A stretch of DNA of 64,000 nt, taken from assembly GCA_016184225.1 (NCBI GenBank), contig JACPDA010000004.1, positions 672,316 to 736,315 of the forward strand, written 5' to 3'. Made by a program: the position numbers and the translations under genes. This document shows, in pieces, positions 1 through 45,851 of this stretch (position 1 is the stretch's first letter; the number at the start of each line of letters is the position of its first letter). Source of the stretch: Candidatus Daviesbacteria bacterium. Its GTDB lineage: Bacteria > Patescibacteriota > Microgenomatia > Daviesbacterales > UBA10151. The notes below the pieces were generated by a model. That model ran no database searches. It worked only from the letters and a program-made list of their open reading frames with translations, and was not told the origin of the DNA.

Positions 1-1338
1 AGGGCTGTCAATAATATTGCCGATATTACCAATTTGGTCATGCTGGAATATGGCCAGCCTTCCCATGCTTTTGACGCCGCTACTATCAAGGATCAGGCTT
101 TAATCGTCCGGACTGCCAAAGAGGGGGAAAACCTAATTACTCTGGACGGTAAAACCAGAAAACTTCTTTCTTCGGATTTGCTGATTACTGATCCGGAAAA
201 GGCAGTAGGTTTGGCCGGAGTAATGGGAGGTAAAAACAGCGAAGTAACTGAGAAAACTGCCGAAATCCTTTTGGAAGTGGCCATTTTTGACCCTAAAACC
301 ATCAGAAAAACAGCCACCAGGCTTGGCTTACCCTCAGAAGCCGGCACCAGGTTCCAGCACGGTTTAACCGGAACAAGAGCCTTTCAGGCACTTAATGCAC
401 TGATCAGAACGTACCAACAATTGGGAGGAAAGCTGGAAGCCATTTCTATTGTGGACAACCTGGAAGAGAAAACAAAAACAGTCACCCTAACCCAGAAAAA
501 AGTAAATTCTCTTATTGGTATAGATATTCCACCAGCAGAAGTAGAATCATCACTTACCAAACTTGATTTTAAACTAGCTTCCCACTCGTCAACCCCGATT
601 AAATCGGGGTCAAGTGGGAACGTAGTTTGGGACGTAACAGTGCCATATTTCCGGCTGGATATTAATATTGAGGAAGATTTGATCGAAGAGGTAGCCAGGA
701 TGTATGGTTATGAAAAGATTCCCCCTCAGGAGCTTCAGGGCAAGCTGCCGGAAAAGATAGACCAATCCCTTTTTGATCTGATTTATAACCTAAGGCTTAA
801 GTTTGTGGAACTAGGGCTAACCGAAGTCCAAACTTATTCTTTCTATTCCACTCAAGTAATTAACGAATTACGAATGACGACTAACGATCTCATTAAAATT
901 GCCAACCCAATTTCCTCTGAGACAGAGTATTTAAGGGATGAAATTTGGCCCAACCTTTTGGAAAAAGCTGCTGAGAATTTAAAATACTTTAAGGAAGTAG
1001 CTATTTTTGAAGTAGGCAAGGCTTACCAGGCAAAACCGGAACTGAAAGAAGGATATCGATTATCCATACTTTTATCAGATGATTCCGGCGACCCCACTCC
1101 CGAGCTTTACCAAATTTTCCAGGAAACCATGTCACACCTTCCAGGTGAAAAATTGCAATTACACCTGGAAGGTGAAGCTGAGGAGCGGGAATTCTTTCAC
1201 CCAACCAGGTTTGCTGCTTTGGAAAAAGATGGAAAGGAGATTGGCTTTATAGCCGAAATCCATCCCCGGATTGCCAATAAATTCGGGATAGAAAAAAGGG
1301 TGGCTGTTTTAGAAATTAAAATACCGGATCGTCAATAG
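1..1338 (+). CDS. pheT: phenylalanine--tRNA ligase beta subunit, C-terminal portion (5' end lies outside window)
   Basis: ORF 34..1338 is open back to nt 1 in the same frame. It has a PheT-like B3/B4 region, a B5 region (EEDLIEEVARMYGYEKIP) and a C-terminal anticodon-binding-like region. Confidence 0.8.
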   Translation, partial: RAVNNIADITNLVMLEYGQPSHAFDAATIKDQALIVRTAKEGENLITLDGKTRKLLSSDLLITDPEKAVGLAGVMGGKNSEVTEKTAEILLEVAIFDPKTIRKTATRLGLPSEAGTRFQHGLTGTRAFQALNALIRTYQQLGGKLEAISIVDNLEEKTKTVTLTQKKVNSLIGIDIPPAEVESSLTKLDFKLASHSSTPIKSGSSGNVVWDVTVPYFRLDINIEEDLIEEVARMYGYEKIPPQELQGKLPEKIDQSLFDLIYNLRLKFVELGLTEVQTYSFYSTQVINELRMTTNDLIKIANPISSETEYLRDEIWPNLLEKAAENLKYFKEVAIFEVGKAYQAKPELKEGYRLSILLSDDSGDPTPELYQIFQETMSHLPGEKLQLHLEGEAEEREFFHPTRFAALEKDGKEIGFIAEIHPRIANKFGIEKRVAVLEIKIPDRQ

Positions 1339-10007: not shown

Positions 10008-11948
10008 CTAGCGGAAAAGGTCTAAAAGCCTGTCCAAAATGCTCCTTACTGCGGCTATACCCTGAACTGCAGGAGCAGGCTCAGTGGCCGGGGGAGCTGG
10101 TGCCGGAGCAGCCGGAGCTGGTGCCGCCTCCTGTGGGGCAGGTTGGGGAGCGGCCTGCTGCTGCTGTTGTTGCTGCTCAGGCTGCGGTGCCGGAGCAGGA
10201 ACCGACCCACTGCCTCCGGAACCACCACCAGCTGGTGGGGTATAAGAGCCGGAAGAAGGAGCAGTGTAGCTGCCGGAACCACCCCCACTTCCAGCTGGCG
10301 GGGTATAGGATCCTGAACCGGAAGTACCTGAGCACTGACATCTGCTGCCGGTCCAAGTGCAACCTCCTCTGCCACAAGCTACCTCCGGTGACTCATACGT
10401 TCCACCATAACTGCCTGGGCCCGGAGAAGAGGCATAATTCGGATATCCTCCTTGTGAGGTACCTGTCGTTTCGCTTGCTCCAGTGCACTGGCAGGATGAA
10501 TTTATCCAAGAGCAACCCTGTCGTTTCCCGCAAGCAATTGCCGGGCTATCCTTAGAAACACTTGCGCAATCACAACTTGAACCAGTCCACCGGCAACCGC
10601 CAGAAGTACAAGATGATTCCGGGTTTTGTTCTGTGAACGCCGGGGGGGTGTAGGAACGGACAGTCGCAGCGCTACACTGGCAACTTGATCCATTCCAGGA
10701 ACACCCATACCTGCCGCACTCTGCTGCCGGATCCGGTCCGACACTGCTATTGTAATAACCACCGTATCGGCCATAAGATACTTGCGAGGCCTGCTCTGCC
10801 GGAGGCCTGCACTTGTCCGGATTTGCCTTACAGAAATCCTCAAATTCCTGGCGTTTTTCCGAATTTCCAAGAATCTCCGGCGGTCGTCCCTGAGGACACT
10901 GAGCTGGATTGGTGCGGCAGTAAGCTACGTATTCTTGAGACTTTTGGACAGTTTCTTTGGTTTCGCCATAATATCCGCATGAACAGGAATTGCCTGCCCA
11001 GGAACAGTTTGGCGTCCTGTTACACATCTCCACCGGATTGTAATAGCCGCCTCCGGGGGCAATTCCCTTACCCGGATCCTCACCTTTCTTGTAACCGCAA
11101 TCCGCCGGGTTTTGCTGACAATATTTAAGACAGCTCTCAGCCGAATTGCACCCCCCCGGACCGCTGAATGTACCTCCTGAAACTTCAGTAAAACCTTTAC
11201 AAACCTGGAAATTATTGGGGTCTGAGCAAAAAGTTTTGCAAGTGCCCTCTGATTGGCAACCGCCCGGCCCCACCTTGTGCTCCCCACCCCTAAGCCCCAC
11301 CTCCTCGGCAAAAGATTTACATTTACTGGTATTATCCTGCTGAAGGCAAAAAGCCTGGCAGGAATTGGCAGAATCACAACCTAAGACTTCCTTCGCTTTG
11401 TTGATAATTTCCGCTCTGCCCGGATCATTAACCACCCCTGCCGGTATTCCCTGGGATTTGGCAAAGGAGTTACACGTATCATAATTTGCCGGTATCTCGC
11501 AAAAATTTAAACATGCTTCATAAGAATTGCATCCCAATCTTCTTTGCGCCTCCCCTAAAATTTTATCTTTTTCCAAAACAACCGGATCATCTTTGTAAAA
11601 CCCCTTTGATTTGCCGTAATTTATGCAGGTTTTTCCGTTAACCGGATCCTCACAAAAACTTCGACACTCGTAATAAGTACCACAATTTCCCAAATCGGCA
11701 ATCGGAAACTCTACCCCGTAAATTTTGGCCCTGATTTGCGGATCAGCATAATCGCCAATCTTTTGCTCAAAATCATCAATCCCGTCTCTGTTATCATCAA
11801 TAAAAGGACGCCCCTGAGCCGTGGCAGACGGAGATGAGTCTTGTGCTAAAACAGATGAAAAGGAGAGAGTTGCCAGGATGGCTATTCCCAAAAGAAGAAG
11901 CCATTTTCTAACTATATATCCGATACTTAATTTATTTGCAATCATCAT
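10008..11948 (-). CDS. secreted cysteine-rich repeat protein with Gly/Ser-rich and Pro/Ala/Gln-rich C-terminal low-complexity tail
   Basis: Signal peptide (LLLLGIAILATLSFSSVLAQ). At least 4 repeats of GCxSxxxCxxFCxxxxNxxxCxxF and at least 4 repeats of CGxxGCxWxGSxCxC. Then a (SGSYTPPAG)n tract and PAPAPQPEQQQQQQQAAPQPAPQ. Confidence 0.7.
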   Translation of the reverse strand: MMIANKLSIGYIVRKWLLLLGIAILATLSFSSVLAQDSSPSATAQGRPFIDDNRDGIDDFEQKIGDYADPQIRAKIYGVEFPIADLGNCGTYYECRSFCEDPVNGKTCINYGKSKGFYKDDPVVLEKDKILGEAQRRLGCNSYEACLNFCEIPANYDTCNSFAKSQGIPAGVVNDPGRAEIINKAKEVLGCDSANSCQAFCLQQDNTSKCKSFAEEVGLRGGEHKVGPGGCQSEGTCKTFCSDPNNFQVCKGFTEVSGGTFSGPGGCNSAESCLKYCQQNPADCGYKKGEDPGKGIAPGGGYYNPVEMCNRTPNCSWAGNSCSCGYYGETKETVQKSQEYVAYCRTNPAQCPQGRPPEILGNSEKRQEFEDFCKANPDKCRPPAEQASQVSYGRYGGYYNSSVGPDPAAECGRYGCSWNGSSCQCSAATVRSYTPPAFTEQNPESSCTSGGCRWTGSSCDCASVSKDSPAIACGKRQGCSWINSSCQCTGASETTGTSQGGYPNYASSPGPGSYGGTYESPEVACGRGGCTWTGSRCQCSGTSGSGSYTPPAGSGGGSGSYTAPSSGSYTPPAGGGSGGSGSVPAPAPQPEQQQQQQQAAPQPAPQEAAPAPAAPAPAPPATEPAPAVQGIAAVRSILDRLLDLFR

Positions 11949-12670: not shown

Positions 12671-14503
12671 TCAAGTGACCTTTTGCCAGCGGGATACCGG
12701 GGTTTTAACCAGGCCAAATTTCTGGCCCAAACGCAGTATTAAACTAAGCAATATGTAGTAGAACCTCCCGTGGTAATGCTTGGAAGCCTCTATTAAATGC
12801 TCATTGGCTTTTTCCTGGCCAATCTTTTTAGTGGATCCCCCATGGAAGTGAATGAATTTGGCAGAAGGGACAAAATAAATCGGCACCTTAAATCGTTTTA
12901 ATCTTCTGGCATATTCTATATCTTCAAAAAAGATAAATGTCCCTTCATCCAAAAGTCCTACTTTATTGATTATCCTTTTTGGAATTAATAAACAGGCCAT
13001 CACCAATCCTTCAACCCGCAACCACCTGGAAGGTGGGCTTTGACTCCTCCCAGGTGAAATCGGTTGAAACATAAAATACGCTCCTCGACGCGCCAAAAAG
13101 TATTCCTTAAACGCCCCGGTTAGAGTAGGCAAGTGAAACGCAGAATCCTGATTGCTTAAATCGGGAAACAGCAATTTCCCGCCCACAACAGCTTTACCCT
13201 GAAAATCTTCAGCCGTATCCAATAACTTTAAAATTCCTTTTTCTAAAACTTCTATATCTGAATTAAGCATCAGGTAATACTCACCCAGGGAGTACCTGAT
13301 AGTTTTGTTATATCCTTTGGAAAAACCTTCATTTTCACTATTCTGCAGGTATTTCAATTTAGGAAGAAACTCTTTGATCTTATCTCTGCAAGGATCAATC
13401 CGGCCGTTATCTAAAACTACAACCTCCATGTCATTCCGGCGAAAGCCGGAATCCATATCAAAAATGCTTTTTAAAAGTTTCCTGGTCAACTCCGGGGTAT
13501 TGTAATTAACAATGCCAATAGAAAGCTTAATCGGGTATTCAACATTGTGCTCACCTGGAAGGTGCAAACCTATCCCACCTTCCAGGTGGACTAGATTGAC
13601 ACCTCCTCTTATCCCTAAATAAAAATCCAACACCCCTCTTCGCTGGGCAGGCCTGCCGAAAATAAACAGTTTGATGGCTTCTCTAAGTAATGCAAACTTA
13701 GTGCGGATTCTACCATACTGAATTCCGAAGATCAGTCTATTCCGTGTGTGGTAGTAATCAGTAACAACGGAACCAATTCCGGTTGATTGGGAAACCTTAT
13801 GATAAAGGCTAACCTTACTATTGTAATAAATCTTAAATCCGGCCTCCGCAACCCTTTTTGCCAGATCACTATCTTCAAAATACAAAAAGTATTTCTCATC
13901 TAATCCTCCTAATTCCTCTAAGACCTCTTTTTTAATTAAAACGCAGGCCCCCGAGAAAATCCCGGCTTCTTCTCCGCCAGCTGGCGGATCATATTGCCCC
14001 TTATCTACCTCATCAATTCCCCGGTGTAATGAGCTGATATTATCCCAGTCAAACTTACCCCCGGCAAACCAAATCACTTTGCCCAAATCCTTACTTCCAT
14101 ACCTTTCTTTGTGAAATTCAAAACCAGGGGCAAAGTAAATCTTGGGGGAGACCAGACCAATTTTTGGATCGGATTTTAAAGTCTTTACAAGTTCTAAAAT
14201 CAAATCCGGATCTTTTATTAAACAATCATTATTTATCAGCAAAAAATAATCCGCCCCCCAGGCCTTTGCATAGTCCAAACCCCTGTTGAAACCGCCCGCA
14301 TACCCCAAATTTTCTCCGGTTTGTAAAACATCCACCTCAGGGAATGCCTTATGTACAGCAGAAACACTGCCATCCGTTGATGCATTGTCCACAACAATTA
14401 CCTGTAACCTGTAACCTGTAACCTGTAACCTCTTTAAAGACTCCAGAAAATCCAGTGTATCCTGCTTGCCGTTATAGTTAAGTGTAATAATTGCTACTTT
14501 CAT
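12671..14503 (-). CDS. tandem two-domain family 2 glycosyltransferase
   Basis: Two GT-A/GT2 modules (IITLNYNGKQDTLDFLESL...VVDNASTDGS and IGIVNYNTPELTRKLLKSI...VVLDNG), each with a DxD-like region. Confidence 0.8.
   Translation of the reverse strand: MKVAIITLNYNGKQDTLDFLESLKRLQVTGYRLQVIVVDNASTDGSVSAVHKAFPEVDVLQTGENLGYAGGFNRGLDYAKAWGADYFLLINNDCLIKDPDLILELVKTLKSDPKIGLVSPKIYFAPGFEFHKERYGSKDLGKVIWFAGGKFDWDNISSLHRGIDEVDKGQYDPPAGGEEAGIFSGACVLIKKEVLEELGGLDEKYFLYFEDSDLAKRVAEAGFKIYYNSKVSLYHKVSQSTGIGSVVTDYYHTRNRLIFGIQYGRIRTKFALLREAIKLFIFGRPAQRRGVLDFYLGIRGGVNLVHLEGGIGLHLPGEHNVEYPIKLSIGIVNYNTPELTRKLLKSIFDMDSGFRRNDMEVVVLDNGRIDPCRDKIKEFLPKLKYLQNSENEGFSKGYNKTIRYSLGEYYLMLNSDIEVLEKGILKLLDTAEDFQGKAVVGGKLLFPDLSNQDSAFHLPTLTGAFKEYFLARRGAYFMFQPISPGRSQSPPSRWLRVEGLVMACLLIPKRIINKVGLLDEGTFIFFEDIEYARRLKRFKVPIYFVPSAKFIHFHGGSTKKIGQEKANEHLIEASKHYHGRFYYILLSLILRLGQKFGLVKTPVSRWQKVT
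14399..14431. repeat. heptanucleotide tandem repeat (GGTTACA/CCTGTAA) x4 inside GT2 coding sequence
   Basis: acCTGTAACCTGTAACCTGTAACCTGTAACCtc encodes RLQVTGYRLQV in the N-terminal region of the GT2 gene. The same CTGTAACC motif recurs in the trmD insertion at 39510-39577. Confidence 0.85.
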
Positions 14504-14520: not shown

Positions 14521-14572
14521 GTGTCTACTTATCCCACCCCTGGGGTGGGTTAGCTTCACACAGTAGATAAAC
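14521..14572. repeat. REP-like element, family C (GTGTCTACTTATCCCACCCCTGGGGTGGGTTAGCTTCACAC)
   Basis: Hairpin CCCACCCC/GGGGTGGG plus TAGCTT tail between two GT2 genes. Near-identical copy at 39241 and related copies at 40022, 40748 and 58696. Confidence 0.7.
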
Positions 14573-15473
14573 CGTCTATATAAACCCTGGCCCTCTTAGT
14601 TTTTCCCAAAAGAGAAAAGGCAACTACCCGAAGGATCAACCCCAGAATTAAAACCACCTTAAGCAGTAGATAAAATGACTTCATATGCTTCAAAATATAG
14701 TATCTAATTCCTCTCAGTTCATTTAGAAAACTTGGGGACAAGTCAAAGTTGGTAGAAGCGCCGTGCAAATGAACTACTTCAATAGTAGGTACATACCAAG
14801 CCTTAAACCCCTTATCGGCAATCCTTTTGCACCATTCCACCTCTTCCGTATGCATAAATAGATTTTCATCAAAACCGTTGGTACCAACAAAAACCTCTCT
14901 CTTTAGCATAAAAAAAGCTCCCATTACCCAGCCAACCGGGTGAGCCTTAGAAAAATATTTTTTATCAGTAGGGTGGAAAGCGGGAACAAGCTTATTTACA
15001 AGAGGAATCTTGCTTAAACCAAAAATCCAAAAAATTATATTTAAAAAGCTTGGTAAATTTCCGGCACTTGGCTGCAACCTACTGTTTGCATACTTTAACC
15101 TAGCTCCTAAAAGATCACAATTTAAATTAACTCGAAAATAAGCCAGGGCTTTATACAAACTTTCTTCCTCCAAATAAACATCGGAATTAAGCAGCAGGAT
15201 AAAGGGATCCTTAGACTGCCGCATGGCCAGGTTATTTCCTTTGGAAAATCCCAAGTTTTCCTTTGAAGCAATCAGCTTCACCCAGGGATAATCGGATTTA
15301 ATAAACTGCGCTGACCCGTCGGAAGAACCATTATCCAAAACAACTACCTCGATATTATTTCCCAGTCTTTTCTCGCAGTATTCCTTAGCTATTCTTACTT
15401 TATCCAAACACCTACCGGTGATATCTTTTGTGTTATAGCTTAAAATGACAACTGACAAATCTAAATTATTCAT
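14556..15473 (-). CDS. family 2 glycosyltransferase
   Basis: LSVVILSYNTKDITGRCLDKV...VVLDNGSSDGS GT2 signature. Confidence 0.8.
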   Translation of the reverse strand: MNNLDLSVVILSYNTKDITGRCLDKVRIAKEYCEKRLGNNIEVVVLDNGSSDGSAQFIKSDYPWVKLIASKENLGFSKGNNLAMRQSKDPFILLLNSDVYLEEESLYKALAYFRVNLNCDLLGARLKYANSRLQPSAGNLPSFLNIIFWIFGLSKIPLVNKLVPAFHPTDKKYFSKAHPVGWVMGAFFMLKREVFVGTNGFDENLFMHTEEVEWCKRIADKGFKAWYVPTIEVVHLHGASTNFDLSPSFLNELRGIRYYILKHMKSFYLLLKVVLILGLILRVVAFSLLGKTKRARVYIDGLSTV

Positions 15474-16407
15474 AACGGAGCCCTGCCATTATTTTAAACT
15501 TCCTGTAATGTTCTAAAAGTTTTATCCCCCAAAGCACAAAATCACGGAAAACTGGTGGGTATTTTTTGTAGTAGTGTTTTTTATAAAAAATCCTCATGGC
15601 TGAGACGGCATGGGTGGCTGCATTTAGCCTGGTTTCCTTTGCCACTTCCTTGGCCGATGTTTGCCGCAGGCCGGAAGAGGAACCCTTGAAATGGATAATC
15701 TTTACCTCAGGATAATAATAAATTTTCCAGCCTTTCTCCTTTAAGGAATAACAAAATTCAATATCTTCTCCGTTAAAAAAATAGTCCTCATCCCAAAATC
15801 CGATCTGCTGCCCGGCAATTTTCCGGACCATCAGGAAACTGCCGCTGACACAGTCTATTTCATGAGATTCATCAGGATTTAAGTATGAAGCACTGTAGCC
15901 GGCAAAAATAGGGGAGCGGGGAAAGAGTTTGCTCAGGCCACTAAAGTAAGCAAAAGAATTCCAGGGGGTAGGGAAACCCCGGTGGCAGGAATAATCTAAC
16001 CTGCCGTCAGGCAGTTCCACCTTGCAACTTAAAGCCCCAATATCCGGGTCAGATAATAAGACTTCCAGGGATTTCTGAATGGCATGGCCTTTGATAATAG
16101 TATCTGGATTTAAAAATAGAATCACCGGCGCCTTGACTTTTTTGACTCCCATGTTATTACCCGCCGCAAAACCTAGATTTGAGCGATTTTCGATCAAATC
16201 TACCCTGAGCGAAGTCGAAGGGCTACCATATCTTTCTTTTACTGCTTCCACTGACCCGTCACTTGAGCCGTTATCTACCACAATTACCTGCCAGCGGTTC
16301 AGCTTACCTTTGCTCTGGAAGATTGAAGCAAGACAGTTTAAAAGTAAGTCCTTAACATTGTAATTAAGGATAACAATAGATAACTCTGGAGTTCCTCTTT
16401 CTGCCAT
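15466..16407 (-). CDS. family 2 glycosyltransferase
   Basis: LSIVILNYNVKDLLLNCLASI...VVDNGSSDGS GT2 signature. Overlaps the downstream GT2 gene by 8 nt. Confidence 0.8.
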   Translation of the reverse strand: MAERGTPELSIVILNYNVKDLLLNCLASIFQSKGKLNRWQVIVVDNGSSDGSVEAVKERYGSPSTSLRVDLIENRSNLGFAAGNNMGVKKVKAPVILFLNPDTIIKGHAIQKSLEVLLSDPDIGALSCKVELPDGRLDYSCHRGFPTPWNSFAYFSGLSKLFPRSPIFAGYSASYLNPDESHEIDCVSGSFLMVRKIAGQQIGFWDEDYFFNGEDIEFCYSLKEKGWKIYYYPEVKIIHFKGSSSGLRQTSAKEVAKETRLNAATHAVSAMRIFYKKHYYKKYPPVFRDFVLWGIKLLEHYRKFKIMAGLRYE

Positions 16408-17444: not shown

Positions 17445-18420
17445 CTTCCAACCTCTGGATTTAACCCTTGAAAAACCACTTTCATATTCTTAATATATAA
17501 AGATATGCCTTATAGAACAGTCATTCTTGCCGCAGGGGAAATTTACCACATCTTAAATAGGGGAGTAGCCGGCCTCCCCATATTTCATTCGCCCACCAAT
17601 TATTCTAGATTTATACAACTTATGGACTATTACCGATTTGCCGACACTCCTGTAAGTTTTTCTCATTTTATGAAGGTCCCTTTTGAAGAACGAAACTTAA
17701 TTTTGGATAAATTAAAGAAACAAAATAATCTGCAGGTTGAAATTTTGGTCTTTTGTCTAATGCCTAATCATTTCCATCTGCTACTAAAACAGATCACTGA
17801 AAAAGGCATCACTAATTTTATAAGCAATGTCCAAAATGGCTATGCGAAATACATCAATATTAAGGAAGACAGAGCAGGCCCCTTGTTTCAATCAGCATTT
17901 AAAGGAGTAAGGATAGAAACTGACGAACAACTACTTCATGTATCAAGATATATTCATTTGAACCCGTCGACAGGATATTTGGTGGGAATAGAAAAGTTAA
18001 TAGAATATCCTTGGTCTTCCTTACCGGATTACCTTGAAAGCGCCAATAAAAAGTTTGCTTTTGTAAGCCCCGACTTAATTCTTAGTTTCTTTGGAAGCAG
18101 AGGAAGTAGGGGGAAATATAAAGAATTTGTTTTAAATCAAGCTGAATACCAAAGAAAATTAGCTAATATAAAACATCTGGTTTTGGAATAGAAATTATAG
18201 GAATTACCAAGGGTTTGAAGCCATTCAACACCAGGGGTTGGAAGCTATGTTACTGGTTCAAATTAAAGCCAGTGATACATAAACATCAGTGAATCACATT
18301 TGTCCCACGGCCGTGGAATATTTGAAACAACTTTAGCTTGCAACCTTTCAGGTTGCCGCACACCGTGGGATATTTGAAAACTTTAGCTTTCCACACCGGG
18401 TGTGGAATCGTAAACACTGG
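17427..18420 (+). mobile_element. REPtron-like unit 1: RAYT gene with flanking family-D REPs plus a downstream REP hairpin cluster, inserted between atpC and atpD
   Basis: CAACCCCAGGGGTTGATTAGCTTCCAACC at 17427 and CACCAGGGGTTGGAAGCTAT at 18230 flank the RAYT ORF. Hairpins CCCACGGCCGTGG, GCAACCTTTCAGGTTGC and CCACACCGGGTGTGG (each preceded by TTTAGCTT) lie at 18281-18420. Confidence 0.65.
17505..18191 (+). CDS. REP-associated tyrosine transposase (RAYT)-like HUH Y1 transposase, copy 1
   Basis: HuH motif LMPNHFHLL and a downstream catalytic Tyr context (HVSRYIHLNP). Paralogous to the ORFs at 24822, 40078 and 49509. Confidence 0.75.
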   Translation: MPYRTVILAAGEIYHILNRGVAGLPIFHSPTNYSRFIQLMDYYRFADTPVSFSHFMKVPFEERNLILDKLKKQNNLQVEILVFCLMPNHFHLLLKQITEKGITNFISNVQNGYAKYINIKEDRAGPLFQSAFKGVRIETDEQLLHVSRYIHLNPSTGYLVGIEKLIEYPWSSLPDYLESANKKFAFVSPDLILSFFGSRGSRGKYKEFVLNQAEYQRKLANIKHLVLE

Positions 18421-18701: not shown

Positions 18702-21047
<2,346 letters not shown>

Positions 21048-21066
<19 letters not shown>

Positions 21067-21110
21067 GAGTCTAGTGAATTTCTAGATTCTAGACTCTAGC
21101 GACTAGACTC
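21048..21110. repeat. REP-like element, family E (AGTCAAGAGTCTAG...CTAGACTCTAGCGACTAG)
   Basis: Imperfect palindrome in the atpG-atpA intergenic space. Related copies at 23603, 35944 and 56525. Confidence 0.75.
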
Positions 21111-22732
21111 TATTTTTTGCCTCCCTTTGAAACCTTACTAAATATCCCTACAAACTCCTTTGTTACTTTCTCCAACTCTTTAGCCGTCTTTTCATCCAAT
21201 TCCTTTTTATCCGCTATCTCAGACAATAACTTCTTGTTGCGCAATTTTAGGTGGGCAATATATCTTTGTTCAAATTCACGCGCCTTTTCCACTTCGATCT
21301 CGTCTAAATACCCATTCGTGACTGCCCAAAGCGATACAACTTGTTCTTCAACCGGAACAGGGGAATAGGGAGGTTGCTTTAAAATCTCCGTGATTCTTTT
21401 GCCCCTTTCTATCTGTTGCTTGGTAGCCTGGTCCAAGTCAGAAGAAAATTGGGCAAAAGCTTGCAAAGCCCTAAATTGGGCCAAATCCAACCGGAGCCTA
21501 CCTGCTACCGTTTTCATGGCTTTTGTCTGGGCAGTACCACCAACCCGGGAAACCGATAAACCGACATTAACAGCCGGCCTAATTCCGGCAAAAAACAGGT
21601 CTCCCTCTAAATAAATTTGTCCGTCAGTAATGGAAATAACATTAGTCGGGATATAAGCAGAAACATCACCGGCCTGCGTCTCAATAATCGGCAAGGCAGT
21701 TAAAGACCCTCCCCCGAAGTCTTTGCTTAACTTGGCAGCCCGCTCCAAAAGCCTTGAGTGCAGGTAAAATACATCTCCCGGGTAAGCCTCCCTGCCGGAA
21801 GGCCGGCGCAGCAGCAAAGACATTTGTCGGTATGCCCAAGCATGTTTAGACAGATCATCATAAATTATCAGTGCATCTTTTCCCTGGTCCATGAAACACT
21901 CACCCATGGCACAACCGGCGTAAGGGGCCAGATACTGCATAGTAGCCGAATCCGAAGCAGAAGCTGAAACTATAATAGTGTGTTCCATTGCCCCAGCTTC
22001 TTCCAGTTTGGCCACCAACTGTGCCACTTTGGATATTTTCTGCCCGATTGCTACATAAATACAAATTACAGGAGAGCTTTCAGTCTTCAGACTCGCTTCG
22101 CTGTCAGCTTTCAGACTTTTTGAATCTGTCTGACGACTGACGACTGACGACTGACGACCTTGATTAATGATCGTATCTACCGCAATGGTGGTCTTACCGG
22201 TGTTTCTGTCACCGATAATCAGCTCCCTTTGCCCCCGGCCAATTGGGATCATGGCATCAATTGCTTTAATACCGGTCTGCAGGGGGGTATTGACACTTTG
22301 CCTGGTCACAACTCCGGGAGCAATCTTTTCCACAGGATAGCTTATCTTTGTCTTAACAGCACCTTTGCCGTCAATCGGATTACCCAGCGCATCAACTACC
22401 CGGCCAATCAAAGCTTCTCCTACAGGAACTTGTAAGATTTGACCGGTGGTTTTAACCTGATCACCTTCTTTAACTAAAGTAAAATCCCCAAAGATCACTG
22501 CTCCGACATTGTATTGTTCCAAGTTTAAGGCCAAGCCGAAAACTCCTTTCCCGAAGTCTAAAAGCTCCGAGTATTGGACATCTGATAGACCCTCAATCCT
22601 GGCCACACCATCACCAATCTCGGTCACGACACCAATGTTTTGCTTCTGAGCTTTTAATTTTAGTCCTTTAATTTGGTTCTCTATATCAGCAATAAGCGAA
22701 GCTTGCGAGCTACCGCTCTTTAAATTAGCCAC
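21110..22732 (-). CDS. atpA: F1 ATP synthase alpha subunit with ~27-aa in-frame insertion
   Basis: Walker A GDRNTGKT. The inserted segment [28 protein letters not shown] is encoded by a family-F REP at 22078-22160. Confidence 0.9.
22078..22160. repeat. REP-like element, family F (CAGTCTTCAGC...CTGACGACTGACGACTGACGAC) inside atpA
   Basis: Same architecture as the intergenic copies at 51110-51190 and 53003-53080. Here it is translated in-frame. Confidence 0.75.
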
Positions 22733-23117: not shown

Positions 23118-23620
23118 GACAAGTTTTTTACCTCTTTTTCTATGATTTCTTTCTGATCTTTTTTATTTAAAACCTTGCCAGTCACTTTTTCCATGGCTGA
23201 GACCACCACTTCTGCTACTTTACTCATCACTTCTTGCTCCATCCTGACACTTTCAGCCTGGACAGCTTCTTGGCCCTTTTTAATGATTTCCTGAGCCATC
23301 TTATCGGCTTTCTCTTTTGTTTCCTCAAGATACAACACTCTTTCTTTCTTTGATTCATCTATGATTTTTTGCGCTTCATCTGAGGCTCTACTAATCATTA
23401 CTTCTATTTTCTCATTGGTTTCCGATAATCTTTTTTCAATCTCTTCCGTATTCCTTAGGCTTTCTTCAATCTTTTTCTTTCGTTCTTCTAAAACTTTCAA
23501 AATTGGTTTATATAAAAACCTCTTTAAAATAAAAAGAAGTAAGAAAAAATTGACTACCTGCGCAGCCAAAAGTAACGGATTGATGCCAAATTGGTTTAAA
23601 ATTTCCATAATTAGAGTCAA
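23114..23620 (-). CDS. atpF: ATP synthase Fo subunit b
   Basis: N-terminal TM helix followed by a long charged coiled coil, in atp operon context. Confidence 0.8.
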   Translation of the reverse strand: MTLIMEILNQFGINPLLLAAQVVNFFLLLFILKRFLYKPILKVLEERKKKIEESLRNTEEIEKRLSETNEKIEVMISRASDEAQKIIDESKKERVLYLEETKEKADKMAQEIIKKGQEAVQAESVRMEQEVMSKVAEVVVSAMEKVTGKVLNKKDQKEIIEKEVKNLS

Positions 23621-23684
23621 GAGTCTAGAATCTAGAGTCTAGGAGAAAAATAAATACTTGACTCTCGACTCTAGTGACTAGACT

Positions 23685-23685
<1 letters not shown>
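23603..23685. repeat. REP-like element, family E
   Basis: GAGTCAAGAGTCTAGAATCTAGAGTCTAGGAGAAAAATAAATACTTGACTCTCGACTCTAGTGACTAGACTC. Near-identical to the copy at 56525-56598. Confidence 0.8.
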
Positions 23686-23906
<221 letters not shown>

Positions 23907-24629
23907 TTAATGCTCCTCTGCATGCTTTTCTGAAAGTAACACCATAAATACCAGTGTCAGCATCATAAAAACAGCAGCCTGTACAAATCCTACAATAATT
24001 TCCAGAAAATAAAAAGGGAGCGGTACTATAAAGGCAAAGATTCCCGAAATCGTTGCCAGCACCACTTCCCCGGCGAATATATTACCAAAAAGCCGGAAAG
24101 AAAGCGATACTATTTTGGTAAATTCTCCGACTAATTCTAAAATTCCCACAAATAAAAATATCGGGTTTAGGGTAAACCACTTTTTTAAATATTCAAGCAA
24201 TCCTAAATAACGCAGGGCAAAAATATGGGTCAAAATAGCGGAGATCAAAGCCAGAGCCAAAGTCATGTTTAAATCGGAGTTCATGGAACGAAGCAATGGT
24301 TCACCATGAAACTTAATGGTGGCAAAACCTGGTAAAAGGCCAATCCAGTTTGAAAACAAAATAAACAGAAAAAAGGTCATTACAATCGGGAAAAATACCT
24401 TAGCCTTTTTGTCTCCTGCCAAATCAGAAACCGTAGTGTGTCCAAAATCAATGATCATTTCAAACAAGTTTTGCAAACCAGAAGGGACTAGCCGCACCTT
24501 CCAGGTGGCCAGGACAGAAATAATTATCAAAACTGCCATTGTTATCCAGCTGACCAGCAGGGTATTGGTAATGGGGAAATTCTTAAAATACCCCAATATT
24601 TCCGGCGGCAGTACTATTGCATTTTCCAT
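23907..24629 (-). CDS. atpB: ATP synthase Fo subunit a
   Basis: Five to six TM helices and a conserved Arg in the penultimate helix (FRLFGNIFAGE). Confidence 0.9.
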   Translation of the reverse strand: MENAIVLPPEILGYFKNFPITNTLLVSWITMAVLIIISVLATWKVRLVPSGLQNLFEMIIDFGHTTVSDLAGDKKAKVFFPIVMTFFLFILFSNWIGLLPGFATIKFHGEPLLRSMNSDLNMTLALALISAILTHIFALRYLGLLEYLKKWFTLNPIFLFVGILELVGEFTKIVSLSFRLFGNIFAGEVVLATISGIFAFIVPLPFYFLEIIVGFVQAAVFMMLTLVFMVLLSEKHAEEH

Positions 24630-24821: not shown

Positions 24822-25493
24822 ATGGCTCTAAGAAAAACTATCTTAGCTACTGACCAAATCTATCACATATATAACCGTGGTGTGGAAAAAAGGCCAATAT
24901 TTTTAAATAGAAGGGGCTACAATAGATTTCTTCAAGTAATCAATTACTATCGTTTTGCTAACTGTCCCGTAAAATTTTCCCAATTTAAAGCATTATCCCA
25001 AGATTCAAGAAACGATTTATTAAACAAGCTCGAAATCCAGTCAGATAAACATGTTGAAATCCTGGCTTTCTGTCTTATGCCAAATCACATTCACTTTCTC
25101 TGTAAGCAATTAAAGGAAAAAGGTATTTCTAAGTTTATGGGCAAGTTAAGTAGCGGCTATAGCCATTACTTTAATACCATTAATCAAAGAGTAGGACCTC
25201 TATTTCAAGGAAATTTTAAGGCAGTCAGAATTGAGACAGATGAACAATTAGTGCATACTTCTCGCTACATACATCTAAACCCGGTTTCATCTTATCTAAT
25301 AGAATTTGATTCCCTGGAAAGCTACGAGTATTCTTCTTATCCCGAATATACCGGACGAAAAACAGGATTCTGCAACACAGAACAAGTCCTTTCTTATTTT
25401 AAGAGTATTAAAGCATACAAGGATTTTGTTGGTGACCAAGTGGACTATGCAAGAGAACTAGAAAATATCAAACATCTAATTCTGGAAGATTAA
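24822..25493 (+). CDS. RAYT-like HUH Y1 transposase, copy 2
   Basis: LMPNHIHFL HuH motif and TSRYIHLNP Tyr motif. Flanked on both sides by family-A REPs. Confidence 0.75.
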   Translation: MALRKTILATDQIYHIYNRGVEKRPIFLNRRGYNRFLQVINYYRFANCPVKFSQFKALSQDSRNDLLNKLEIQSDKHVEILAFCLMPNHIHFLCKQLKEKGISKFMGKLSSGYSHYFNTINQRVGPLFQGNFKAVRIETDEQLVHTSRYIHLNPVSSYLIEFDSLESYEYSSYPEYTGRKTGFCNTEQVLSYFKSIKAYKDFVGDQVDYARELENIKHLILED

Positions 25494-29040: not shown

Positions 29041-29479
29041 CTAATTTCTAATTGACCTAAAGAATGACTAATGACAAAATTACCAAAAAATTTGATCTGG
29101 AAGACAGAACTGCTAAATTTGGAGAAGGTGTGATTAAATTGTGTCAGAAGATACCGAGAGGACCTATTACTGATCCACTAATTACACAACTGGTGAAATG
29201 TGGTACCAGCGTAGGAGCTAATTACTCCGAGGCAGATGATGCGGAAAGCAGAATGGATTTTAAACATAAGATCGGGATCTGTAAGAAGGAAACTAGGGAA
29301 GCTAAACATTTTATCAGGATGATTGTGGTTGCTGTATCGGTTTTAAAAGAAGAAGCCAAACCGTTGTGGCAGGAAGCTAAAGAATTAAACTTGATATTTA
29401 ACTCTATTTATAAGAAAGTAAAGTAGGCGGATGATTTTAGACATTTGGTCATTGAGATTTGATTAGAAATTAAAAATTA
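29041..29479. repeat. perfect 13-bp inverted repeat pair (CTAATTTCTAATT ... AATTAGAAATTAG) bracketing the four-helix-bundle gene
   Basis: Left arm 29041-29054 and right arm 29467-29479. Additional CCTAATT/AATTAGAAATT direct iterations on both sides. Confidence 0.6.
29064..29426 (+). CDS. four-helix-bundle protein (23S rRNA intervening-sequence protein family, TIGR02436-like)
   Basis: Size and the characteristic pattern FGEGVIKLCQKIP...QLVKCGTSVGANYSEA...EAKHFIRM. Confidence 0.75.
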   Translation: MTNDKITKKFDLEDRTAKFGEGVIKLCQKIPRGPITDPLITQLVKCGTSVGANYSEADDAESRMDFKHKIGICKKETREAKHFIRMIVVAVSVLKEEAKPLWQEAKELNLIFNSIYKKVK

Positions 29480-29591
29480 GAAATTAGAAATTTATCGTAT
29501 TATGATGTACTCAAAGAAATTTAAAATTTTCTGGATAATTTTATCCGTAATTGCCGGGATAGCCATTATCCTTTTTTCTCTTTTGCCCCTC

Positions 29592-34890: not shown

Positions 34891-36975
34891 ATGGAACTTA
34901 AAACCCCGCTTTCTGCTCTTACCGGCATTGGATCCGGGCTTTTATATAAGCTGAAAAGGCTTAACTTAAATACTGTAGAGGATTTGATTTATCATTTTCC
35001 CTTTAGGTATGATGATTTTTCCAATGCCACCTCTGCCCTGGATGCCAAAATAGGGGAGAATGTAACCCTGCAGGGGGAGATTTGGTCCATCCAAAATATC
35101 TATACCAGGTCCAGGAAAATCATTACCAAAGCTATCTTTAATGACGGCACCTCGCCCATAGAGCTCACCTGGTTTAACTCTTCCTGGCTGATCAAGCAGA
35201 TCCAGACAGGTGACAGGCTACAGGTTTCAGGCAAAATCAGTAAATACAAATCCAAATTATCAATTATTGCCCCGCGCTGGGAAAAACTGAATAGCTTTCA
35301 GTCATCAGCTATCAGTCATCAGACTTTGCACACAGGAAGGTTAGTTCCTGTTTATCCTGAAACAGATGGCTTAAGTTCTAAATGGCTTAGGACCAAAATA
35401 GACAAGCTGCTGCCGGAAGTAATAGATCAAATTAGTGATCCTCTACCTGATCAAATCCGGGATAACATGATGCCGCTTAATGATTCCATACAACAAGTAC
35501 ATTTCCCGAAAACTCTAGAACAGGCAGAAAAAGCCCGGGAAAGGTTAGGCTTTGATGAGCTGTTTTATGTCTCTTTGGCCACCCAAAAAGCCAGGGCAGA
35601 GTGGAAGAAAAAACCAATTGTTGAACCATTAAAAATTAATCCTGCAGATATCAGAGATTTTGTGGGTAAACTTCCCTTTAAATTGACCGGCGCCCAAGAA
35701 AAAGTCTTAACGGAAATTCTGGATGACCTGAAGAAAAAACAACCCATGAACAGGTTAGTCCAGGGAGAAGTAGGCTCCGGGAAAACAGTGGTAGCCGCCA
35801 TTATTGCCTATTTGGTCCATAAAAATAACCTGCGTACCTTGTTTATGGCCCCCACGGAAATTCTGGCCTTCCAACACTTTGAAACTCTTTCCAAACTCCT
35901 CGAACCATTCGGGGTCAAAGTGGGAATATACACAGGAAGTAAGAAGAGTCTAGAGTCAAGAGTCAAGAGTCAAGGGAAGAAACAATCTAGACTCTCGACT
36001 CTAGCGACTAGCCACTATCCCGATATAATCATCGGCACCCATGCCCTTTTGTCCCAAAAACTTTCCACCGACAATGTCGGACTAATCATCATTGACGAGC
36101 AACAGCGTTTTGGGGTCGAGCAAAGAACACTTTTGCGGGGAAAAGCCAAAATTCCGCATTTCCTGACCATGACAGCCACCCCCATCCCCAGGACAGTAGC
36201 CCTAACCTTGTACGGTGATCTGGATATGTCAGTCATTGATGAGATGCCGGTGGGAAGACAAAGGGTCAAAACCTATGTAGTACCCGAAAAAAAGCGGCTT
36301 GATTCATATAAATTTATTGCCAAAAGGGTAGCTGAAGGAGACCAGATTTATATCATCACCCCCTTAATAGAAGCATCCGAGACCCTAGTCAGCGTCAAAG
36401 CAGCCAAAGTAGAGTTTGAGAAACTAAAGAAGGTTTTTCCTTCTCTTAATCTGGACCTGCTTCATGGCAGAATGAAAGGAGTTGATAAAGATCAGATAGT
36501 CAAGGATTTTCGCTCCGGCAAAACCCAGATTCTGGTTTCCACCTCTGTGGTAGAAGTGGGCATGGATAACCCTAATGCCACCATTATTGTCATTGAAGGC
36601 GCAGAACGATTCGGCCTGGCCCAGCTTCACCAACTTCGAGGAAGAGTTGGCAGAGGAGAAAAGCAGTCTTATTGCCTGCTTTATACATCAAATTATTCAA
36701 GCGATGAAAGAAGAAGATTGAAATACCTGGAAACTACTTTTGATGGTTTGAAACTGGCTGAGCTGGATTTAAAGATCCGGGGCAGCGGGCAAATTTTTGG
36801 GACTTTGCAGTCAGGCAGATTTGAGTTCAAGATAGCGAGCTTCCATAATATCACACTCCTGGAGAAAACCAAGCAGGCAGCCAAAGATCTGTTGGACTCT
36901 GATCCCGCTCTTGACAAACACCCGCTGCTCAAGGCAAAATTACAGGATATCTCATCAGCAGTGATGCCTGACTGA
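34891..36975 (+). CDS. recG: ATP-dependent DNA helicase RecG with in-frame REP insertion
   Basis: Wedge-domain N-terminus, helicase motifs (GEVGSGKT, DEQQRFG, TATPIPRT, QLRGRVGRG). Extra segment SKKSLESRVKSQGKKQSRLSTLATS is encoded by the family-E REP at 35944-36012. Confidence 0.9.
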   Translation: MELKTPLSALTGIGSGLLYKLKRLNLNTVEDLIYHFPFRYDDFSNATSALDAKIGENVTLQGEIWSIQNIYTRSRKIITKAIFNDGTSPIELTWFNSSWLIKQIQTGDRLQVSGKISKYKSKLSIIAPRWEKLNSFQSSAISHQTLHTGRLVPVYPETDGLSSKWLRTKIDKLLPEVIDQISDPLPDQIRDNMMPLNDSIQQVHFPKTLEQAEKARERLGFDELFYVSLATQKARAEWKKKPIVEPLKINPADIRDFVGKLPFKLTGAQEKVLTEILDDLKKKQPMNRLVQGEVGSGKTVVAAIIAYLVHKNNLRTLFMAPTEILAFQHFETLSKLLEPFGVKVGIYTGSKKSLESRVKSQGKKQSRLSTLATSHYPDIIIGTHALLSQKLSTDNVGLIIIDEQQRFGVEQRTLLRGKAKIPHFLTMTATPIPRTVALTLYGDLDMSVIDEMPVGRQRVKTYVVPEKKRLDSYKFIAKRVAEGDQIYIITPLIEASETLVSVKAAKVEFEKLKKVFPSLNLDLLHGRMKGVDKDQIVKDFRSGKTQILVSTSVVEVGMDNPNATIIVIEGAERFGLAQLHQLRGRVGRGEKQSYCLLYTSNYSSDERRRLKYLETTFDGLKLAELDLKIRGSGQIFGTLQSGRFEFKIASFHNITLLEKTKQAAKDLLDSDPALDKHPLLKAKLQDISSAVMPD
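35944..36012. repeat. REP-like element, family E, inside recG
   Basis: AGAGTCTAGAGTCAAGAGTCAAGAGTCAAGGGAAGAAACAATCTAGACTCTCGACTCTAGCGACTAG. Confidence 0.8.
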
Positions 36976-39293: not shown

Positions 39294-40001
39294 ATGAAAT
39301 TTTCCATCATTACTTTATTCCCGGAAGTCTTTGAACCTATACTGAATTCCTCAATCCTGAAACGGGCCCAAAAAAAGGGGCTAGTAGAATTTGAGCTGAT
39401 TAACCTGCGCGGTTTTGGTAAAGGCAGACACCAGGTAGTTGACGGCAGGCCCTATGGCGGTGGAGCAGGAATGGTTTTACGGACAGACATACTGGCCAAA
39501 GCAGTCAGGAAGGTTACAGGGAACAGTAGACAGGTTACAGATCAGAAACTAAAACCTGTAACCTGTAACCTGAAAACTATCCTTATGTCTGCTTCCGGGA
39601 CACCTTACAAACAGGCAAAGGCACATGAGTTTTCCAAGTTAAAACACCTAATCATTGTTTGCGGACATTATGAAGGAGTAGACCAACGGTTTATCGACAA
39701 ATATGTAGATGGCGAGATTTCCATTGGGGATTATGTCCTGACAGGAGGAGAGATCCCGGCCATGGTAATTGTCGATTCTATCACCAGGCTGATTCCGGGA
39801 GTCCTGGAAAAACCGGAAGCTACTATCAATGAGTCCTTCTCCGAGGGCCTGCTTGAGCATCCTCAATATACCAGGCCGGCAGGCTTTGAGGGAAAAAAAG
39901 TGCCTGAAGTCTTGTTGTCCGGAAATCATGCCGAAATAAAAAAATGGCGTTTAAAAAAATCCCTGGAAAAAACCAAAAAAATCAGGCCTGACCTGTTATA
40001 A
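39294..40001 (+). CDS. trmD: tRNA (guanine37-N1)-methyltransferase TrmD with ~22-aa in-frame hairpin insertion
   Basis: SPOUT/TrmD motifs (GRPYGGGAGMVL, LIIVCGHYEGVDQRF, YVLTGGEIPAMV). Extra segment KVTGNSRQVTDQKLKPVTCNLK at 39510-39577. Confidence 0.9.
   Translation: MKFSIITLFPEVFEPILNSSILKRAQKKGLVEFELINLRGFGKGRHQVVDGRPYGGGAGMVLRTDILAKAVRKVTGNSRQVTDQKLKPVTCNLKTILMSASGTPYKQAKAHEFSKLKHLIIVCGHYEGVDQRFIDKYVDGEISIGDYVLTGGEIPAMVIVDSITRLIPGVLEKPEATINESFSEGLLEHPQYTRPAGFEGKKVPEVLLSGNHAEIKKWRLKKSLEKTKKIRPDLL
39510..39577. repeat. inverted-repeat element (AGGTTACAG x2 ... CTGTAACCT x2) inside trmD
   Basis: AAGGTTACAGGGAACAGTAGACAGGTTACAGATCAGAAACTAAAACCTGTAACCTGTAACCTG. Shares the GGTTACAG unit with the heptamer tract at 14399-14431. 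Confidence 0.75.
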
Positions 40002-40077: not shown

Positions 40078-40746
40078 ATGGCCTTCAGAAAAACTCTTAT
40101 TGTAACCAATGAGATATATCATGTCTTCAACAGAAGCGTAGGACAACAACCCATCTTTTTATCGAGCAAAGATTATGAACGCGCTGTAGAGGTGTTGAGA
40201 TTTTACCAATATGGGAAACTCCCTCTTAGATTTTCCTTTTTTAATCGCCTTGCAAAAGATCAAAAAGAAACATTCCTCCTAGATATTGAGGAATCTTTAA
40301 AACCTGTTGTGAAGATTATTTGTTTCTGCTTAATGCCAAATCATATCCATTTCTTGTTGAAAAACTTAACCGAAAATGGAATCACGCAGTTTATGGGTAA
40401 CCTACAAAATAGTTATGCGCGATACTTTAATATCAAAAATGGGCGAACCGGAACACTTTTTCAACAAAACTTCAAAGCAGTCAGGATTGAAACAGACGAG
40501 CAATTAGTGCATGTTTCCCGTTATATCCATTTAAACCCAGTTACTGCATACCTCATCAAACCAGAGGAACTTAAGCAATATGAGTGGTCTTCATATAAGG
40601 ATTACTTAAATACCAATCTCTCTTATCTTAAAAAGAAAGTAATTCTAGATTTTTTTAAATCTCCTAAAGAATATGTGAATTTTGTCCTAAATCAAGTTGA
40701 TTATCAAAGAGAATTAGATAGGATTAAGCATTTAATTTTGGAGTAG
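40078..40746 (+). CDS. RAYT-like HUH Y1 transposase, copy 3
   Basis: LMPNHIHFLL and HVSRYIHLNP motifs. Flanked by direct copies of the family-C-variant REP. Confidence 0.75.
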   Translation: MAFRKTLIVTNEIYHVFNRSVGQQPIFLSSKDYERAVEVLRFYQYGKLPLRFSFFNRLAKDQKETFLLDIEESLKPVVKIICFCLMPNHIHFLLKNLTENGITQFMGNLQNSYARYFNIKNGRTGTLFQQNFKAVRIETDEQLVHVSRYIHLNPVTAYLIKPEELKQYEWSSYKDYLNTNLSYLKKKVILDFFKSPKEYVNFVLNQVDYQRELDRIKHLILE

Positions 40747-40797: not shown

Positions 40798-41496
40798 CTA
40801 TTCAAAAGGATTGGATTTGCCTTTAGGTGATGAGGGGATAAATAAAGTGCCGGGAATTATTGTCCCTTCATTTATAAGTCTTGCAATCAGTTCTTCATCT
40901 TTCTGACTAAGCTCAGGCACGGGAGAATCAGGGCTGCCAAAGTTTTTAGGCAGGGGTGAATATAAAACTTCAACTGCCAAAGCTATATCAAGAGCTTGAC
41001 TGGCTTGGTTAGATGAAACATTAATACTTTTTACCCTAATCAATCTGGGTGAATTTTCCAAATTACTTAACAGAGTTTGCAAACCAGCCCGGGGGCCTTT
41101 AATGTCCAGCTTAACTTCGAAGCTCTCCGAGTTTCCTGACTTTCCCGCACCACTGCCAAAAGAGATCGAACCGATGTTAAATCCGGACTCAATCGTCAGT
41201 TTTTGCAAGCTACCCAGGACAATTCCGAAATCTTTTTCCCCGGGAAGTGTAACCAAAGCATACTCCAGTTTGCGTAACAAATCCTCACTGTCATAACTTT
41301 CCAGCGCATTAACCTTATTTTCCAAAAAATCAGACTTATTAATCAGGTCTCCAATTGCCTGCTGGTTATCTATCAATTTATTCACCTGGGGATAAATTAC
41401 AAACAGACTTAAGAAAATACTAGAAATCGCCACTACTGCCGGAAAAATATAGAGCTTGTATTTGGAATAAAATTTAATCAGGTCTTCTTTTTTCAT
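40798..41496 (-). CDS. pilO: type IV pilus assembly protein PilO-like
   Basis: Single N-terminal TM helix and coiled coil, followed by a periplasmic domain. Sits directly downstream of pilN. Confidence 0.6.
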   Translation of the reverse strand: MKKEDLIKFYSKYKLYIFPAVVAISSIFLSLFVIYPQVNKLIDNQQAIGDLINKSDFLENKVNALESYDSEDLLRKLEYALVTLPGEKDFGIVLGSLQKLTIESGFNIGSISFGSGAGKSGNSESFEVKLDIKGPRAGLQTLLSNLENSPRLIRVKSINVSSNQASQALDIALAVEVLYSPLPKNFGSPDSPVPELSQKDEELIARLINEGTIIPGTLFIPSSPKGKSNPFE

Positions 41497-42038: not shown

Positions 42039-42041
42039 CTG

Positions 42042-45848: not shown

Positions 45849-45851
45849 TAC

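Follow-up and report, generated by a model that had tools for sequence, protein, structure and literature searches.

A perfect heptanucleotide run near the start of a glycosyltransferase gene of Candidatus Daviesbacteria is probably an old microsatellite that has stayed in place, prone to slippage and conversion, and one of a class of period-7 arrays that occurs throughout this lineage. Such a tract would give occasional null alleles, with no demonstrable switch and no remnant of a hairpin. It lies in the stretch of DNA analyzed here, which we call the window (64,000 nt, contig JACPDA010000004.1 of assembly GCA_016184225.1, positions 672,316 to 736,315 of the forward strand); window coordinates are used unless a locus of a relative, denoted by an L number, is named. 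The tract and its host gene are

14400 to 14431, minus strand: the GT2 tract, a solo array in the N-terminal GT2 domain, covering the loop that follows helix alpha1 and strand beta2 up to its middle
12671 to 14503, minus strand: the host gene, recognized from its open reading frame (ORF) and domain matches as encoding a 610-aa tandem GT2 glycosyltransferase with two GT2 domains

The tract and its place in the GT2 fold

The perfect period-7 run is 32 nt long, and Tandem Repeats Finder (TRF) gives it 4.6 copies, 100% matches, and a score of 64. On the coding (minus) strand it reads A(GGTTACA)x4GGT, i.e., (GGTTACA)x4.57. A preliminary description, made from the letters alone, had reported a perfect four-unit heptamer repeat encoding RLQVTGYRLQV near the N-terminus, and direct reading together with TRF bears this out: the codons for R25 to V35 occupy exactly 14399-14431, with base 14399 falling outside the perfect repeat. 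The encoded protein is 100% identical to an NCBI glycosyltransferase of Candidatus Daviesbacteria, a member of the Microgenomates within the Candidate Phyla Radiation (CPR). Its gene is the third of three GT2 genes in a row, the others being at 14556-15473 and 15466-16407. No inverted partner arm was found within 200 nt of the tract, and no RNA structure is predicted there (fold z = +0.83). The unit is not divisible by 3, and gain or loss of units does shift the frame, as had been proposed; simulated variants of +/-1 or +/-2 units truncate the protein after 32-53 residues.

The preliminary description was wrong in holding that such a segment is missing from the canonical GT2 fold at this position. 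Residues 3-50 of the protein align gaplessly to the solved GT2 structure 6yv7, with KRLQVTGYRLQV opposite YEQDYPRDKLEV. An AlphaFold2 model (mean predicted local distance difference test score, pLDDT, 82) shows a helix at 13-23, a loop at 24-31, and a strand at 32-39 at pLDDT 91-94. The linker has the same length within one residue in outgroup orthologs of 50% identity, which read LRGLxWDGExK and lack the periodicity, and about the same length in the two neighboring GT2 paralogs. Judged from alignment and model together, the array overlies the canonical alpha1-loop-beta2 stretch rather than an extra segment. We rejected an inserted segment in the GT2 fold on the gapless 6yv7 alignment and the AlphaFold model. 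We likewise rejected selection on the protein as the source of the periodicity, because the peptides are diverse (RLQVTGY, KLYPIPY, KLTIDNG, KIQDTRY) and are not kept where arrays have decayed.

Orthologous arrays evolve in concert at fixed length

Relatives were collected by a scan of one genome per GTDB species, which gave 40 Daviesbacteria loci, by a metagenome scan, which gave 44 more, and by exact look-up of further contigs. In most of the ~90 distinct orthologous contigs, the GT2 alpha1-beta2 linker carries an array over the same 33 nt. The unit changes from species to species, while each species by itself has near-perfect copies. Examples of GT2-site arrays are

window: GGTTACA, about 4.6 copies
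L030: GGTTACA, about 4.3 copies
L015: AGTTACA, 4.7 copies, perfect
L002: AACTACA, about 4 copies
L131: AACTACG, about 4.5 copies, near-perfect
L018 and L123: AACTACC, about 4 copies
L097: AAATTAC, 4 copies
L012: CTATACC, 4 copies
L027: AGATACA, 4 copies
L104: CGATTTA, 4 copies
L011: ATTGACA, interrupted
L020: CTGAAGA, interrupted

The canonical anchor-to-anchor spacing, with a 33-nt array, is found in 52 orthologs, which carry 41 distinct arrays. Within species, the periodicity s[i]=s[i+7] averages 0.72 at the array and ~0.3 in the flanks or at other periods; between species, identity averages 0.51 at the array against 0.66-0.74 in the flanks. Most units read NNN[CT]TAC in frame, and this shared frame suggests descent from a single array with concerted change of its units. 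Those that would give an in-frame TGA (ATTGACA and CTGAAGA) are broken at exactly that codon. Unit types are patchily distributed on a tree built from the rest of the GT2 protein, and in many orthologs the array has decayed with gene structure unchanged. Judged from these comparisons, the GT2 array is evolving in concert at a fixed length.

A parallel case exists in an essential gene, where the window carries

858 to 887, plus strand: heptamer array in place in pheT, with AATTACG-like units

The pheT linker that holds the array is fixed at 16 aa, a length found in 15 of the 18 relatives from which the site could be recovered. Several species carry arrays there, of differing units, and others carry no array. 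Across 737 kb of Daviesbacteria loci, we counted 35 period-7 arrays versus at most one for each other period from 4 to 13. Among 88 arrays there are >40 different units, which have no sequence in common.

Several side observations concern these sites. In at least ten species, a GC-rich stem-loop adding 4 to 12 aa stands mid-array at the GT2 site, at locus coordinates of about 10950-11120 where the full flank is present (L008, L009, L010, L013, L019, L021, L026, L028, L094, L096, L101, and L106); the pheT array of L028 has a similar mid-array insert. Such inserts may simply be tolerated at array centers. Arrays also stand at the same alpha1-beta2 linker of paralogous GT2 genes (L027 988-1026 and 3224-3263, L101 1911, L092 2528, L108 6727). 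In L027, the AGATACA unit is identical in two GT2 genes 2.2 kb apart, which suggests possible conversion between the paralogs; direct repeats of this type could mediate deletion or fusion. The control loci (L042-L080; Bacteroidota and others; 494 kb) are not repeat-free, with 8 period-7 and 11 period-8 arrays, which agrees with earlier reports of heptamers in Bacteroidetes.

Unit loss and patch replacement

One relative has lost a unit. L081 (ENA ERZ4903125) is 99.6% identical to L005 over 3846 nt, and the sole indel between them is one 7-nt unit lost from the array (33 to 26 nt). Two of the eight single-nucleotide polymorphisms (SNPs) fall inside the array and break the repeat. The L081 gene is out of frame, and its annotated product, P0043, starts MVDNGS. 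The 4-unit allele is kept in 11 other contigs of the same species, two of them from assemblies ERZ4903055 and ERZ4903072. L081 is the one out-of-frame ortholog among the ~90 distinct contigs and among 120 protein clusters. Four other multi-member clusters show no change at the array, and no in-frame allele differing by +/-3 pure units was seen among the orthologs examined.

A second kind of change is seen between L131 and L097, a near-identical pair in which all 35 mismatches fall within ~100 nt centered on the array. The patch exchanges (AAATTAC)x4 in L097 for (AACTACG)x4.5 in L131, and the flanking changes are mostly synonymous. The pattern indicates a probable import of a diverged allele; a donor of the L131 patch was not found among all fetched loci, where the best match was 78-82%.

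For the window species itself, Logan contig L001 (SRR12113419, a consensus assembly) is 100% identical to the window. A metagenome scan with the flanks of this species and a variable gap (GGAGTCTTTAAAGA N{12,42} ATTGTTGTGGACAA) gave 0 matches. The 573-aa product of every +/-1 or +/-2 variant had no exact record, a weak negative given that one SNP breaks the look-up and that the species has two records. A 530-aa protein (P0092) was considered as a second truncated allele and rejected because it is cut off by the contig end; the apparent split of the neighboring paralog in L133 is an artifact of a run of N.

The proposal that the tract is a slipped-strand phase-variation site holds in part. It is a coding heptanucleotide simple sequence repeat (SSR), and a unit has been lost in a relative; against this, the length is fixed and ~1% of orthologs are OFF. 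As far as the sequences tell, the GT2 tract can yield null alleles, and high-frequency phase variation is not supported. Intergenic arrays exist as well, and so do arrays in the essential genes pheT, atpA, trmD, and gyrB; the presence of the tract therefore reflects a genome-wide repeat process, not a dedicated switch; a dedicated or programmed high-frequency switch on the surface-glycan gene is not supported.

Period-7 arrays across the window

The window contains six near-perfect period-7 arrays versus 0.0 expected from 20 dinucleotide-preserving shuffles. At the other periods from 4 to 21 it has no near-perfect array, except one at period 14. TRF finds ~21 period-7 arrays of many different units; 10 are intergenic (intergenic DNA makes up 9% of the window) and 11 are inside genes. 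Many consist of an array, a loop, and a complementary array, giving long hairpins in which a mismatch recurs regularly, roughly once per unit. Intercistronic hairpins are located between atpA and atpG, upstream of atpF, in the pilus cluster, and upstream of gyrB. Beyond the GT2 and pheT arrays, the features are

39510 to 39577, plus strand: heptamer hairpin in frame in trmD, left arm GGTTACAG..., right arm (AACCTGT)x2.9; GGTTACA unit, as in the GT2 tract
22064 to 22159, minus strand: heptamer hairpin in atpA, (TCGTCAG)x4 plus a complementary arm, adding 28 aa in frame between IINQ and CIYVAIGQK
19956 to 20036, minus strand: in-frame insertion of ~23 aa in atpD that includes a degenerate heptamer array with AGTGCTG-like units
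35944 to 36015, plus strand: AAGAGTC/GACTCTN heptamer hairpin in frame in recG
35293 to 35322: further solo array in recG
58350 to 58475, plus strand: degenerate heptamer arrays in gyrB (C-terminal part), in frame and potentially hairpin-forming
60327 to 60356, minus strand: solo array of AATTTTC-like units inside an 835-aa ORF with Mur ligase domains
21051 to 21112: TAGAGTC/GACTCTA heptamer hairpin, intercistronic, between atpA and atpG
23612 to 23687: TAGAGTC/GACTCTA heptamer hairpin, intercistronic, upstream of atpF
56527 to 56599: TAGAGTC/GACTCTA heptamer hairpin upstream of gyrB
51111 to 51185: TCAG/CTGA-core heptamer hairpin, intercistronic, in the type IV pilus cluster
53005 to 53080: TCAG/CTGA-core heptamer hairpin, intercistronic, mismatches about one per unit; -33.7 kcal/mol, z = -6.4
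29462 to 29492: solo intergenic array (ATTAGAA)x4.4, a unit also found in L037 and L039
43100 to 43130: solo intergenic array of CTATACC/CTAAACC units, CTATACC being the unit of the L012 GT2 array
48353 to 48383: solo intergenic array (ATTGTAC)x4.4

That a GGTTACA-type repeat also forms the arms of the trmD hairpin had been pointed out beforehand, and we confirm it: the arms are GGTTACAG/CTGTAACC, and the RNA fold reaches -25.8 kcal/mol (z = -4.5). The hairpin makes a net insertion of 13 aa relative to the solved S. aureus TrmD. Read from the sequence, its antisense arm stops at exactly the point where one more CCTGTAA unit, the third, would introduce an in-frame TAA. GGTTACA hairpins homologous to the trmD copy occur at non-orthologous places in two relatives (L013 2628-2700 and around L029 18174-18211). 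In the spacer after the ATP synthase c-subunit gene, L013 has a GGTTACA-type hairpin instead of the TAGAGTC/GACTCTA hairpin of the window. The atpA insertion is absent from 19 of 24 relatives; by comparison across species, the atpA and atpD hairpins are evidently lineage-specific insertions, at places where other species have other small inserts or none. Two complementary, hairpin-forming arms are present in the trmD, atpA, and recG copies and absent at the GT2 tract. An Rfam search at gathering thresholds returned a tRNA only, with no family matching the arrays.

We note some minor points on these features. A degenerate GGTGACAGGCTACAGGTTTCA stretch at 35209-35229 in recG encodes GDRLQVS and is either a decayed GGTTACA-type array or chance. 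The AtpA loop after the P-loop helix and the AtpD N-terminal barrel are insertion hot spots, where the inserts (heptamer or GC-rich hairpins) vary by species or are absent. ORF translations, inspected by eye, show at 40798-55847 (minus strand) a large cluster with several prepilin-like N-termini and probable pilus-assembly genes; its intercistronic spacers carry heptamer arrays or hairpins at 43100, 48353, 51111, and 53005.

Mechanism and alternative explanations

For an old microsatellite in place, which we consider the best explanation, the following course can be envisaged. Slipped-strand or template-switch events, together with short-patch recombination, would keep homogenizing the units, and purifying selection on the protein would discard length changes, frameshifts, and stop-creating products. 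The encoded peptide would serve as tolerated filler for the loop and the strand start, and the tract would act as a local mutational hot spot that occasionally gives frameshift null alleles of the glycosyltransferase. Several points weigh against this explanation. Near-perfect arrays persist across lineages whose proteins are 59-75% identical. With only 4.6 units, slippage should be rare, and constant-length homogenization in the essential pheT, where +/-1 intermediates are not viable, makes simple slippage at best a partial mechanism. Units common to unrelated loci of one genome number 13 pairs versus 5.0 +/- 2.2 in permutations (reached by 1 of 500). This sharing hints at ectopic templating or a genome-specific preference, neither of which plain local slippage predicts. 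Selection for mutability of the glycan gene also stays conceivable. These same observations would fit an undescribed templated or enzyme-driven process that rewrites period-7 arrays in place at fixed length, in essential genes too, with patch swaps of ~100 nt and units shared within a genome, and for which the GT2 arrays would be sites of diversification or contingency. We hold such a process to be unlikely, if worth keeping in view; a repeat-maintenance process of this sort might be connected with the abundant RAYT-like Y1 proteins or with some feature of the replicase.

A true contingency locus would be one at which second-order selection keeps the tract and a change of unit number switches the surface-glycan glycosyltransferase, for example in phage or host escape in the manner of neuO. 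The truncations at residues 32-53 would suit such a locus, as would the long retention of perfect arrays in a glycan gene and at the same linker of paralogous GT2 genes. The natural -1-unit allele belongs to a 99.6%-identical strain of a related species, in the same ERZ49030xx-49031xx accession series as in-frame samples, and neuO sets a precedent for a coding heptanucleotide switch (PMC13001214). We nevertheless doubt this explanation and give it a minor chance: one OFF allele among the ~90 contigs and 120 clusters compares with 65.6% OFF in neuO, and a copy number fixed at ~4.6, with no +/-3-unit alleles, compares with 3-53. The sole OFF allele has two repeat-breaking SNPs and resembles decay more than a reversible state, arrays are equally well kept in the essential pheT, and the tract encodes a fold element rather than a dispensable extension.

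Two further possibilities look to the DNA itself. If a protein or RNA recognized the periodic DNA or mRNA (three units are 21 bp, i.e., two helical turns), the tract could act in regulation or processing. Conservation extends to the DNA periodicity and not to the peptide, arrays and hairpins stand between cistrons, and MacGregor (2015) proposed a post-transcriptional regulator for heptamer (TAACTGA) repeats in Beggiatoaceae (PMC4679880). What makes a functional nucleic-acid motif distinctly improbable is that the >40 units of the 88 arrays have no common sequence, that arrays lie at different places in different genes (codon 25 in GT2, mid-gene in pheT), that decay in many orthologs leaves gene structure unchanged, and that no Rfam family matches. 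More improbable still is that one arm of a trmD-like GGTTACA hairpin was inserted here and the other arm lost. The shared unit, the homologous hairpins at non-orthologous places in L013 and L029, the lineage-specific heptamer hairpin insertions in atpA and atpD, and the above-expectation sharing of units within a genome would all agree with a mobile origin. Yet the GT2 tract has no second arm or predicted structure and adds no length relative to GT2 homologs or repeat-free outgroup orthologs, and it is orthologous in dozens of species with other units in the NNN[CT]TAC frame, which argues for common descent in situ. From these comparisons, the fixed length appears largely to refute a hairpin remnant. 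The earlier suggestion that the tract derives from a mobile repeat thus keeps its family context, the trmD hairpin, and fails for this copy.

Comparison with known heptanucleotide repeats

The neuO repeat encodes an N-terminal extension. In neuO, the capsule O-acetyltransferase gene of the CUS-3 prophage in E. coli K1, the repeat ranges over 3-53 heptanucleotide units, 65.6% of 64 genomes are OFF, and switching is measurable within cultures (PMC13001214). The two cases are alike in having a 5' coding heptanucleotide repeat in the gene of a surface-glycan-modifying enzyme, a repeat that each of the three frames reads as a heptad peptide and in which a change of one unit shifts the frame (PMC13001214). 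They differ in that the present tract is fixed at 4.57 units, is OFF in ~1% of orthologs, and encodes a canonical alpha1-beta2 element.

Heptamers are an over-represented class of long SSRs in several bacteria, a result cited as reference 33 of PMC4692102, and polymerase slippage or the polymerase footprint has been proposed as the cause (PMC4692102). The short tandemly repeated repetitive (STRR) sequences and heptameric long SSRs of cyanobacteria and Xanthomonas (GGGAATC, GGGGAYT) resemble the arrays here in their period-7 excess, mostly intergenic location, inverted stem-loop pairs, and variability between close relatives (PMC4692102). The present arrays differ in belonging to CPR/Microgenomates, in having many AT-rich units rather than one G-rich unit, in being frequent in essential genes, and in forming fixed-length, in-place arrays at orthologous coding sites. 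The classic STRR units are CCCCAGT, TTGGTCA, and CAACAGT. None of these, nor TAACTGA, GGGAATC, or GGGGAYT, is among the 40 commonest canonical units of the 88 arrays. TAACTGA direct repeats (Beggiatoaceae, Cyanobacteria, and Bacteroidetes; MacGregor 2015) come in 2-6 copies; most immediately precede a start codon, and a few lie in ORFs near protein termini (PMC4679880). The TCAG/CTGA-core units of the window resemble TAACTGA; in contrast to that one dominant unit, there are dozens here, hairpin pairing is common, and the coding copies are found within conserved domains.

Rickettsia palindromic elements (RPE) are small palindromic repeats inserted in frame. The hairpins in atpA, atpD, trmD, recG, and gyrB are like them as small palindromes that add in-frame residues to housekeeping proteins. 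The GT2 tract differs in being neither palindromic nor an insertion, and the hairpin arms here are built of 7-nt units; a full-length consensus element common to the window hairpins was not found. In-ORF Borg repeat units are generally multiples of 3. Schoelmerich et al. (2023) describe Borg tandem repeats as fast-evolving, perfect, present within ORFs, and tolerated in proteins, and as arising independently and creating new disordered regions (PMC9879509). Here, by comparison, the arrays have 7-nt units and a fixed length, their peptide forms part of the fold, and the sites in different species are orthologous.

That cyanobacteria contain heptanucleotide repeats is an old finding, to which Xanthomonas and Beggiatoaceae were added later; there is no agreement on the origin or function of the repeats (PMC4692102; PMC4679880). 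In the literature, we found nothing specific on heptamer or tandem repeats in CPR, Patescibacteria, or Daviesbacteria. What is unusual against the known phenomenon is the behavior at orthologous coding sites in a CPR lineage. One coding site in dozens of species, with different units, a fixed length, one unit loss, and one patch swap, together with a parallel site in an essential gene, amounts to a natural experiment in which slippage, template switching, ectopic conversion, and selection for mutability become separable with read-level and phylogenetic data. The tolerance of CPR AtpA, AtpD, TrmD, RecG, and GyrB for in-frame repeat hairpins matters for annotation and for the reading of "insertions" in CPR proteins. 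Our results also caution that a short coding SSR alone is insufficient for calling phase variation.

Other dispersed repeats and Y1_Tnp genes

Four diverged Y1_Tnp (IS200-like) ORFs are present in the 64 kb (17505-18191, 24822-25493, 40078-40746, and 49509-50159). They score 48-56 bits to the RAYT (REP-associated tyrosine transposase) model NF047646, below its cutoff of 80, and no heptamer hairpins flank any of the four in the window. On these two grounds, a RAYT link to the heptamer hairpins gained no support. The four ORFs are possible mobilizers of the small palindromes.

A second dispersed repeat, CACCTTCCAGGTG, has nine matches with at most one mismatch in the window versus 0.07 expected, at

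1135-1174, 13023-13035, 13552-13588, 24495-24507, 47290-47330, and 58697-58709: CACCTTCCAGGTG repeat

Most form inverted pairs within genes: pheT, a probable pilin gene, and the GT2 gene, which has two such sites. The repeat encodes HLEGGIGLHLPGEH of the GT2 protein, where the model has low confidence, and SPGRSQSPPSRW of the same protein, which is absent from many orthologs. The AT-rich genome also carries GC-rich mini-hairpins at 14533-14549, 592-610, and 13952-14002. One, CCCACCCCTGGGGTGGG, stands just upstream of the GT2 start codon; another, ACCCCGATTAAATCGGGGT, is within pheT, and the atpA insertion of L011 repeats its first 18 nt; a third, CCGCCAGCTGGCGG, encodes DPPAGGE in the GT2 protein.

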